Below, piece after piece: positions 12,504 through 26,922 of a DNA stretch of 64,000 bases (position 1 is its first letter; each line of letters starts with the position of its first letter). The notes beneath the pieces are model-generated. The model saw nothing but the letters and a program-made list of their open reading frames with translations. It ran no database searches and was not told where the DNA came from. Origin of the DNA: Octopus sinensis (Eukaryota); contig NC_043014.1 in assembly GCF_006345805.1 (NCBI RefSeq), positions 35,464,001-35,528,000 on the forward strand, read 5' to 3'. Position numbers and translations under genes: made by a program.

Positions 12504-12629
12504 TTTTTTTTTATAATATAATATAATATAATAAATGTGAATGTCAGTGTGTCAGTTTGTCAAGCTTTTTCAACTTTACTCCTAGAGGCCGTAGCCCAAC
12601 ATATCATACCATTTTGGAATCAGACTGAC

Positions 12630-12925
12630 CCCGTGAATAAATTAAAAACACCCCGTTCCGAATCCGGACTCACAATCCTGAAATTTGGGATTCCTATACT
12701 TTCATTACTGTGATTGTATTCGGCAATTTTTTTACGTGACTATTTGCGACAAATTTTTTTGTACGATAGCAAATTTTATAATCTAATGGCTAACTCCGTG
12801 AGTAAATTAAAAAATATTCCGGGCCTAATCCGGACCTGCAATCCTGAAATTTTGGATTCCTATGTTTTCATTACTGCGATTGTTTAGGGCAATTTTTTTT
12901 ACATGTTTTTTGGCGACGAATATGG
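12630..12925. repeat. Diverged direct repeat (~120-bp unit, ~165-bp period)
   Basis: ccgtga.taaattaaaaa..aatccggac..caatcctgaaattt.ggattcctat..ttcattactg.gattgt occurs twice. Confidence 0.8.
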
Positions 12926-14132: not shown

Positions 14133-14162
14133 GTGTGTGAACTAAACCCCTCATATTCTCTC

Positions 14163-14242
<80 letters not shown>

Positions 14243-14472
14243 ATGAGGGGTTAATTCCCTGGTGATCTAAACGAACAGTTATGCTGAGTAAATGCTATAA
14301 TGGTCATCCGTTAGGTTCCAAGATCACAGCTGAAGCTGGAGCTAGTGATCCGTATTAGGCTTTCGAGTTAGCAGGTATATACTATATTCGAAGGAAAAGG
14401 ACAACAAAAACCAAGGCAGGACAAGTATCTCAAGTCATTTAGAATATTTCATTAGGGTAAGGTGAATTTGAA

Positions 14473-14548
14473 GTCTTACAGCTGTTTCAGGTATATCCCA
14501 AGTGATAGACTAGCATGTCCGTACACTGGATATTCCGTCATCAGAGAC
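14473..14548 (-). ncRNA. Type I hammerhead ribozyme, left arm of foldback element
   Basis: Reverse complement: gtct-CTGATGA-cggaatatcca...tgggatatacct-GAAA-cagctg-TA-agac. Palindromic stem III ACAGCTGT, GUA cleavage triplet. Confidence 0.8.
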
Positions 14549-15008
14549 AAGGTAAGTAGACAGGGAAATTCAGAGTTTATAGGATTGAGGAATATGTTGA
14601 AGAATAAAAAGTAAAACAGTAGTTAGAAGAATACAGACAGGAGAATAAAATTCACAGATCATCTTTTTCCAAAGAGTATAGAGATTGGTTCGCACTTCGG
14701 TGAACGTATATGGCCTTAGGTATAATCCCAAGTAAATCCAGGCAGTATTTTGGCCGTATTTTGAATGTTGCGTTCATACTGAATACTGCCAAAATACTGC
14801 CTGATATACCTGGGATTATACCTAAGGACCTATACCTTCACAGAAGTACGGACCAATCTCCATACCCTTTGGGAAAAAGATGAGCCGTGAATTTTATTCT
14901 CCTGTCTGTATTCTTCTGTCTGCTGTTTTACTCTTTATTCTTCTCCCTACTATTTTATTCCTTATAAACTCTGAATTTCCGTCTAGAACTTTCATACATA
15001 CTCACCTT

Positions 15009-15084
15009 GTCTCTGATGATGGAATACTCAGTGTACGGACATGCTATCCTATCACTTGAGATATACCAGAAACAGCTGTAAGAC
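15009..15084 (+). ncRNA. Type I hammerhead ribozyme, right arm of foldback element
   Basis: gtct-CTGATGA-tggaatactca...tgagatatacca-GAAA-cagctg-TA-agac. Long stem II, palindromic stem III, GUA site. Confidence 0.85.
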
Positions 15085-15302
15085 TTCAAATTCACCTTAC
15101 CCTAAGGAAATATTCTAAATGACTTGAGATACTTGTCCTGCCTTGGTCTTTGTTTTCTTTTTCCTCTCATATAATATAATATAATATAATGTAATGTAAT
15201 ATATATAGGAAATAATTGAGATTCAGTTATATTAGGTCTTAAGTTGAAGCACTAAATCAGTCCGATATTATTCGCATCGCTCGAAGTAAGATGAATAAAA
15301 TC

Positions 15303-15424
15303 AAAATAAGCAACTGGATATCAAGTAGTGATGCAGTACAACCGTTTCAAGCATTGTTCAATTAAATGGACCCGCTTGAAACGGTCGTACTGCATTACTA
15401 CTTGATAACCTGTTGCTTATTTTA
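15303..15424. repeat. ~120-bp hairpin whose arms keep only the 3' half of an HHR
   Basis: aagcaactggatatcaagtagtgatgcagtacaaccgtttcaagc / gcttgaaacggtcgtactgcattactacttgataacctgttgctt. Contains GAAA-cggtcg-TA but no CTGANGA. Confidence 0.7.
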
Positions 15425-15458
15425 ATATATATATATATATATAATATATATATATAAT

Positions 15459-16221
15459 AAATGAAGAAAATGCTGACAAAATAATATAAGTAATTTAAGT
15501 AATTTAATTAGGTGAAAGTTCTTTTTACCGGTTGCGCATTTGTTATGCTTATCAAAAGATATTTTTTAAGAGAGATAGAGTTCCTTTCTGATAGATTTTT
15601 TCCTCTTATCCTCTTATCTTATCACAGATAAGAGGAAAAAATCTATCAGAAAGGAACTCTATCTCTCTTTAAAAAAATATCTTTTGATAAGCATAACAAA
15701 TGCGCAACCGGTAAAAAGAACTTTCACCTAATTAAATTACTTAAATTACTTATATTATTTTGTCAGCATTTTCTTCATTTCTTTTTTTATATATCACAAC
15801 TCGTGTTCCACATCTCCTTTTTTAAATATATATATATATATATAATATATATATATAATAAATGAAGAAAATGCTGACAAAATAATATAAGTAATTTAAG
15901 TAATTTAATTAGGTGAAAGTTCTTTTTACCGGTTGCGCATTTGTTATGCTTATCAAAAGATATTTTTTAAGAGAGATAGAGTTTCTTTCTGATAGATTTT
16001 TTCCTCTTATCCTCTTATCTTATCACAGATAAGAGGAAAAAATCTATCAGAAAGGAACTCTATCTCTCTTAAAAAAATATCTTTTGATAAGCATAACAAA
16101 TGCGCAACGGTAAAAAGAACTTTCACCTAATTAAATTACTTAAATTACTTATATTATTTTGTCAGCATTTTCTTCATTTCTTTTTTTATATATCACAACT
16201 CGTGTTCCACATCTCCTTTTT

Positions 16222-16225
<4 letters not shown>
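15459..16225. repeat. Two tandem near-identical ~400-bp units, each a ~320-bp near-perfect palindrome with a variant HHR-like motif in both arms
   Basis: Palindromes at 15459-15780 and 15860-16179, separated by a short tail and (TA)n. Arm motif tctt-TTGATAA-gcat(aacaa)atgc-GCAA-ccgg-TA-aaaaga (e.g. 15680-15719). Confidence 0.85.
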
Positions 16226-16259
<34 letters not shown>

Positions 16260-25842: not shown

Positions 25843-26584
25843 GCACACATATATATATATATGCCTACATACATACATATGTATATATATATATATATAT
25901 ATATATGTATGAGACGGGATTCTTCCAGTTTCCGTCTATCAAATCCACTCAGACATTTTCCCCGGGTACCAGGCAGAGAGAGGGGTAGTAGTATGGAATG
26001 AAGAATTTAGGAATATAGATTAGGTGTTGGTTGGACAGGTCAGTGCTTAGTAGCAGAAGAAAATATATATTAGAAGATGTATACATATGTATATATTAGA
26101 CATGTGTATATATATTTATACAGATGTTTATTCATATCAATAATCTTCATATACAACTCATACTCATATGTATATGTACACATGCACATCCATATATACC
26201 TGTATCTGTATGTATTATCGCCCCTATACACGCAGGTATATATACCTTGCATACATATATGCATTCACACATACATAAAACATACATACATACATACATA
26301 CCATACATACATACATACATACATACATACATACATACATACATACATACATACATACATACATACACGCATACACACATACATATACACGCACATATAC
26401 ATGCACGCATAGACACACGAATATAATTAGATGGTTGTGATATTCGAGTATGAGTGAGAAATTAGATTGGGATTAAGAGTTAAAACGTAGATTTATAGGT
26501 TACTGGGATTACGTAAGGAGTATTATGGAATTATACTGTTTGGTCGTTTAGGCATTTGGATTTATGGTGGAATTTGAATGTGTG

Positions 26585-26805
26585 AAAAAAGCAGTGGTTG
26601 CATGTGCTTAGTGCATCATTATGTTTATTTAGCAGACCTCGGTATGAAAGCCCTGAGTCCACTATGGACCATGATAGAGTATAGGGTATTTGTATTATTG
26701 AGATGATGAATGTGGTTGGTGAGTGTTGTAGATTTACTATGGTTATCGTATCTAAAAGAATGGAGGTGAGCAGCATATCGTTGCTTAAAATTTTTTCTGC
26801 CAAAA
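26585..26805 (-). pseudogene. Penelope-like element GIY-YIG endonuclease C-terminal relic (frameshifted, internally deleted)
   Basis: Minus strand, two frames: KNFKQRYAAHLHSFRYDNHSKSTTLTNHIHHL then IPYTLSWSIVDSGLSYRG-LLNKHNDALSTCNH. Matches the PLE pattern FKxRxxxHxxSF..STxL..WSI..LLNK..CxH. Confidence 0.7.
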
Positions 26806-26922
26806 TAATGGATCTAGAAATGCAATATCCTTGCATATCTCACTTCTATTTTCATTCCCCCACTTCACTCTCTATTTCGTATCTTATCTAAATTAACTAT
26901 TGCTTAATAATTTTCTCACATC

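Follow-up and report, generated by a model that had tools for sequence, protein, structure and literature searches.

A palindrome that carries a hammerhead motif (HHR) on each strand and no open reading frame (ORF) raises the question of what it is: a mobile unit in its own right, a functional RNA locus or a remnant of another element. Such a locus lies in a stretch of 64,000 nucleotides from Octopus sinensis (NCBI RefSeq assembly GCF_006345805.1, contig NC_043014.1, positions 35,464,001 to 35,528,000 of the forward strand), which is termed the window below and to which all plain coordinates refer. In the original prediction, made before any database search, the locus was read as a MITE-like element and as a possible source of circular RNA. 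The follow-up analysis instead points, with a probability of about 0.88, to a decayed Penelope-like element (PLE) that bears Hydra-clade motifs: two of its 3′ ends, both truncated on the 5′ side, lie head-to-head in a TA microsatellite and likely stem from one insertion event.

The inverted arms align without gaps in three blocks, namely 14392–14571/14986–15165 (90% complementary), 14599–14673/14869–14943 (91%) and 14664–14738/14803–14877 (85%), and with gaps they are 85% identical over 399 columns. The predicted rod fold of the palindrome reaches −514.6 kcal/mol, with a z-score of −41 against 20 shuffles. The predicted pair of inverted arms is thus borne out by complementary segments of 85–91% and by the rod fold, and the reported lack of an ORF agrees with the finding that no stop-free frame of at least 130 codons lies within 14394–15165. 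These bounds hold for the palindrome itself, whereas the family profile places the left boundary of the insertion ~150 nt further left, giving an extent of ~14238–15168 (Table 1). The description of near-identical outer ~80 bp and diverged inner arms was overstated: from the centre to the end, arm identity per 50 columns is 0.92, 0.86, 0.90, 0.77, 0.88, 0.92, 0.98 and 0.84, which is not significantly uneven (chi-square p = 0.07). Furthermore, the palindrome has no single mirror centre, since its arms start ~20 profile positions apart, at 1169 on the left and 1189 on the right; including its tail, the left arm extends to profile position 1738, and the right arm stops at 1592, the 3′ end termed End A. 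The arms meet at a head-to-head junction.

Table 1. Features of the insertion and its surroundings in the window.
Feature	Positions	Strand	Basis
23-nt piece resembling End B	14137..14159	+	sequence similarity to the tail ends of further copies
(TA)n(GA)n microsatellite, left boundary	14168..14239	.	sequence; (TA)n/(CA)n tracts at the ends of other copies
~150-nt tail (End A to End B), left arm only	14238..14383	-	profile and copy comparison
Left arm: 5′-truncated pLTR/3′ UTR of PLE, profile 1169 to ~1592	14384..14783	-	alignment, profile
Type I HHR motif, C-U at stem II base	14473..14548	-	core motif, constrained fold; predicted cleavage 3′ of 14477
Head-to-head junction, 2–3 nt overlap	14779..14784	.	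genome-unique; found in short-read contigs
Right arm: 5′-truncated pLTR/3′ UTR, profile 1189–1592, End A without tail	14783..15168	+	alignment, profile
Type I HHR motif, U-A at stem II base	15009..15084	+	core motif, constrained fold; predicted cleavage 3′ of 15080
(TATAA)n/TA-rich tract, right boundary	15169..15207	.	sequence

Both ends of the insertion lie in TA-rich tracts, where no target-site duplication is readable, and the microsatellite on the left is likely the target site. Across this microsatellite, the left arm faces the short End B-like piece, which, judged by sequence comparison, is likely a separate, extremely truncated insertion into the same tract. An assembly artefact was considered and rejected, because a 112-nt contig of short-read DNA crosses the junction without differences and the arms are just 85% alike; the contig came from two runs of one study, one of which may be the source sample. 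Elsewhere in the window, two tandem ~400-bp units (15416–16243, 98% alike) of an unrelated AT-rich palindrome, with arms 15456–15580/15659–15783 that are 96% complementary, possibly represent a MITE-like element or a local duplication. A 113-nt inverted pair (12000–12112/12257–12369, 73%), a direct repeat with a unit of ~166 nt (12625–12921) and a small hairpin flagged by sub-threshold miRNA models only (15324–15402) were also observed.

The nature of the arms emerges from their relatives in the genome. A whole-element search yielded 1,884 candidates, of which 40 were scored, giving 111 matches, most of which span a single arm. Across 30 copies, the shared sequence extends beyond the arm in the upstream direction by anything from 0 to >1,100 nt, which corresponds to variable 5′ truncation, and two fixed 3′ ends recur: End A, and End B, which equals End A plus ~150 nt. 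In most cases, either end runs into (TA)n or (CA)n. Moving upstream from the arm, the copies first show a degenerate GIY-YIG region that has a CxCX5C linker and then the RT motifs FDITMGS and YRDD; the suspected link to PLEs and their pLTRs was therefore right, as longer copies continue into GIY-YIG and RT remnants. The identity of the family was pieced together from several decayed copies, with a full-length relative of 806 aa (P0001) as protein reference; the named relatives are from Argonauta and Octopus. One copy (L032) matches residues 660–804 of this reference, the GIY-YIG region, with an E value of 1e-16, and tblastn against the same protein places RT and then EN upstream of the 3′ UTR in L070 and L124, with broken frames; in L070 the 3′ UTR is followed by the start of the arm. 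In L131, the order is pLTR (79% identical to the right arm of the window over 397 nt), tail and then an ORF start carrying KDIP, RRMRW and DKT. End B lies ~60 nt before the first conserved ORF codons, and both ends are located upstream of the ORF.

These motifs, together with FDITMGS, YRDD and CxCX5C, align with the full-length relatives. DKT stands in place of DKG (SDKTGN in L131), the N-terminal RWK position reads RRMRWS in L131 and RRMRWR in the sister copy L123, aligning with RWK/RWR of the relatives, and the linker before EN reads CNCRSGNEC in L031 and CNCQFRTEC in L043. The family also has its HHR close to the 3′ end and inserts into (TA)n, and it shows the PLE traits of a pLTR recurring 5′ of the ORF (L131), an optional tail, variable 5′ truncation and inverted 5′ copies. 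With a 3′ UTR of ~1 kb and an ORF like that of P0001, the element may exceed 3 kb, where Hydra elements typically measure less than 3 kb; no full-length copy was found. Neither the EN nor the RT fragments of the family itself matched in Pfam, whose GIY-YIG model scored only in a sister frame of L118 (E 1.2e-5), and a protein search with the family EN fragment found nothing. Based on the motifs, the arms fit the Hydra description in the covered passages of PMC8557442 as pieces of a decayed PLE; since the HHR of the published Hydra-1_Obim differs, the PLE in the window belongs to another family. The copies differ from the family majority by a median of 8.5% (71 copies) and no intact ORF was found among those examined, so that the family looks old and inactive.

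Further copies are notable for their internal organisation. A 919-codon stop-free frame (L118:2113–4872, +) fuses a piece that by eye resembles the EN of another PLE to a Hydra-type RT-EN without N-terminus, likely through nested or chimeric insertion, and the ORF of one family copy contains part of another GIY-YIG PLE (C..C..C, YVGET; L031:2134–2570, −). Tandem arrangements comprise three ~184-bp End A units (L095:876–1312) and duplications of family segments of 1.68 kb (L074:6366–9416) and 1.18 kb (L163:842–2485), and two loci ~95 kb apart (L209/L210, G000:C17) have identical profile coordinates, likely as a segmental duplication or assembly duplicate. In the window itself, positions 26552–26811 (−) weakly match the EN region of the same PLE profile (E 7e-7).

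The outward-reading HHR predicted on each strand was recovered, with predicted cleavage sites at the same GUA positions (Table 1). Both cores read CUGAUGA...GAAA-CAGCUG-UA; in a constrained fold, stem I has 4 bp, stem II is long and bulged, and stem III falls within the palindromic ACAGCUGU. The CUGANGA / GAAA / UH core and stems I–III of a type I HHR are thus present, with a stem III of just 2 bp. The motifs were recognised from core and constrained fold, not by Rfam, which returned no HHR match at gathering score and none among 100 matches at E ≤ 10. The two stem II variants occur in the arms as originally quoted (atatcca/tgggatat and atactca/tgagatat), each being a separate point change from the commonest family form, ATACCCA/TGGGATAT. 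The C-U mismatch at the stem II base of the left HHR is found in one of 46 intact cores; across these cores the base is U-A in 24 and C-A in 19. The ATG inside CTGATGA opens a 21-codon frame that ends at the cleavage triplet (e.g., in L031). The same architecture has been reported for dimer-dependent PLE HHRs, with a short stem I and a weak stem III with palindromic loop (PMC4209133, in the part covered).

A sample that was not selected for palindromes was drawn with a 23-nt HHR motif, which has 111 exact matches; the 100 listed fall into 94 loci, with flanks of mostly 1.5 kb and with L209 and L210, which look like duplicates, both counted. Among the matches listed, a head-to-head inverted piece is present in 54/94 of these motif-selected loci, and all six close HHR pairs in the 100 are head-to-head. 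The tail follows a near-strict pattern: among the same matches, 35 of the 41 pairs having two 3′ ends carry the full tail on exactly one arm, five on neither and one on both. Four of the five have one partial tail (to 1632–1658), which brings the count to 39/41 with partials included. Single copies split into 18 tailed, 20 tail-less and two short, and against this split the one-tail excess has a binomial p of about 2e-6. A tiny inverted partner hidden beside every single copy was considered as well and is not general: an inverted piece of End B accompanies only 2/18 tail-less singles, and one of End A accompanies 0/19 tailed singles. Arm starts, measured as profile envelopes with one arm constrained by the search motif, correlate within pairs (rho 0.50) and lie within 35 positions of each other in 16/38 simple pairs (0 of 20,000 permutations).

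The arms of a pair also resemble each other. In 18/19 pairs, the identity between the two arms is higher than their mean identity to other copies, and they share rare variants at a mean of 1.4 versus 0.35 per 100 columns in the background (1.75 in the window). This score exceeds the background 95th percentile in just 8/18 arm pairs, and the arms in the window are 88.4% alike versus 84.5% to other copies, with 6/97 comparisons reaching the arm–arm value; a single template for both window arms is therefore suggested, and not more firmly than that. No published count of tails in inverted PLE pairs was found, which weighs little as the search missed the older Penelope papers and most subscription papers. 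The tail/no-tail rule can be regarded as a modest, testable lead on PLE integration.

A sequence of events that would yield such pairs can be outlined. The GIY-YIG/RT protein of the element would cut both target strands, after which the two broken ends would prime reverse transcription at different sites, one at B and the other at A, with the same or a sibling RNA as template. Both cDNAs would copy the same 3′ segment toward the 5′ end of the RNA and would then be joined through microhomology or snap-back. The priming steps are inferred by analogy with a Poseidon-clade PLE, which cuts and extends both target strands and whose RT starts at two sites bounding the tail (PMC11167929, in the passages covered). 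Inverted 5′-truncated copies, often with the tail at one end only, have been described for PLEs (PMC8557442, likewise). As a statement about the whole family, that it integrates by priming both cut ends at two fixed sites on one RNA, separated by ~150 nt, and makes two copies of the 3′ segment, with one-tailed HHR fold-backs as the outcome in more than half of the insertions, the proposal is tentative and its chances fall slightly short of even. If true, hundreds of long hairpins, which are potential dsRNA and editing substrates, would have been seeded in the octopod genome.

Other origins have to be weighed against this. The original prediction envisaged a hammerhead palindrome that PLE enzymes may mobilise in trans as one unit, and in fact palindromes are very common in the family. 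However, it fails the test proposed along with it, a comparison of junctions between copies: the junction pattern of the window matches only itself in the 2.7-Gb genome (≤2 mismatches), the junction centres of 38 simple pairs are scattered over profile 754–1536 and the arms are truncated pieces of a coding element. A MITE would be marked by numerous copies alike in both their ends and their interior, and such copies are not seen. Just one other locus matched the whole element over more than 700 nt (40 scored of 1,884 candidates), with a different centre. A 96-nt junction query gave four further matches seeming to cross the junction; among these and six more loci that were examined, L156 is a palindrome with a nearby junction, its centre within ~8 positions of that in the window but its junction sequence different, L160 and L161 are paired as well but centred elsewhere, and the remaining seven are not head-to-head. 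Two pairs of loci (L185/L195 and L095/L203) do share a junction, among 59 junctions, but these lie on short natural inverted repeats, one of which flanks the CUGAUGA of the HHR, and have their tails on opposite arms, which fits independent recurrence rather than copying. Passage through an edited RNA was rejected, there being no plus-strand A>G excess (right arm 2/105 A, left arm 5/140 T>C, against backgrounds of 3.2% and 4.0%), and copying as a unit appears very improbable. The related idea of a circular RNA got the architecture wrong: circle release needs two HHRs on the same strand and one per strand cannot release a circle, and a retrozyme circle was rejected since the units are inverted rather than in direct tandem. 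Likewise improbable, if less strongly so, is a simple snap-back, in which a tail-primed cDNA folds back, is copied to End A and is resolved by the endonuclease, or else a later local inverted duplication. The close arm starts and the recurrent junctions on natural short hairpins speak for it, and in the window it is indeed the arm with the tail that is longer, in line with what snap-back predicts. Across the family, snap-back requires the tailed arm to reach at least as far 5′, yet this arm is longer in 11 pairs, shorter in 17 and equal in four, the tail-less arm exceeds it by 250–790 positions in some pairs, and some tailed arms hold tail sequence only; deletions that later removed sequence from palindrome centres could obscure the comparison. 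Pure snap-back from the tailed arm is therefore disfavoured family-wide, while it fits the window locus.

Co-option of the locus for a function as dsRNA, as an editing substrate or as an RNA that cleaves would be consistent with two intact HHR cores and the persistence of the long hairpin, but is the least probable of the readings considered. An intact core is kept in 46/65 copies, a sample partly chosen by an HHR motif, and the arms differ by 5.6% and 9.3% from the family majority, compared with the median of 8.5%, so that intact HHRs need no selection. Moreover, the constrained fold puts the cost of HHR formation within the full hairpin at +99 kcal/mol for each strand, stem III needs a same-strand partner and no protein-coding exon is evident by eye among the long frames of the window. 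If transcribed, the locus would adopt a rod-like long-dsRNA form, in which the HHR of a read-through RNA is predicted to be buried and silenced. No RNA data set was listed as a carrier of the sequence, and in two runs presumed to be RNA, only short family-level pieces were found, leaving the junction uncovered, which carries no weight either way on expression. We propose that the HHRs are passengers of the pLTR, and the locus is likely inert.

The fused pair of PLE 3′ ends is thus a real but ordinary fossil insertion of a described type, and both opposite-strand HHR pairs and one-sided tails of PLEs are already known. The family statistic bears on later steps of PLE integration that are unvalidated in the covered passages of PMC11167929. 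The long tail makes both ends easier to score, and the near-strict rule of one tail per pair and the correlated arm lengths that emerge from it can be tested in vitro. The locus also serves as a warning that PLE fold-backs can pass for viroid-like RNAs or MITEs.

MITEs are inverted repeats without an ORF, but the window family lacks their homogeneous copy set and a readable target-site duplication. The 5′ inversions that arise by twin priming of L1 likewise show a head-to-head junction with microhomology; in the window, by contrast, the arms overlap, with one 3′ segment present in both. Within the passages covered of each source, the closest systems include the Hydra-clade C-terminal EN+ PLEs, among them Hydra-1_Obim of Octopus bimaculoides, with which the family shares the order of RT and then GIY-YIG, DKT, the RW motif, the CxCX5C linker, (TA)n targets, the 3′ HHR, an inverted 5′-truncated copy adjacent to the 5′ end and the one-end tail. 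The HHR of Hydra-1_oBim (ctgaagag, 7-bp stem II, stem III acca/tggt) differs, the tail of ~150 nt compares with 30–40 bp described for Hydra, the 3′ UTR measures ~1 kb and the window family is represented by decayed copies only (PMC8557442). With the minimal type I HHRs in PLE pLTRs, the window motifs share the 4-bp stem I, a long stem II and a weak stem III with palindromic loop, and their spacing of 603 bp falls within the 100–700 bp of the dual opposite-strand HHRs that were ascribed to truncated PLEs; stem II is longer here, at about 49 nt with bulges, and cleavage in the window is predicted only (PMC4209133). The Poseidon element PAc of Anolis shares two discrete 3′ ends bounding the tail as well as AT-rich targets, but its RT start sites lie 111–118 nt inside the ORF whereas both ends of the window family lie upstream of it, and the covered passages contain no tail rule for inverted pairs (PMC11167929). 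Non-LTR retrozymes have in common a type I HHR in a non-coding, pLTR-related sequence of a few hundred nucleotides; they form direct tandems with at least two same-strand HHRs and give rise to circles, whereas the units in the window are inverted, with one HHR per strand (PMC7229834; bioRxiv 10.64898/2026.07.22.740005).
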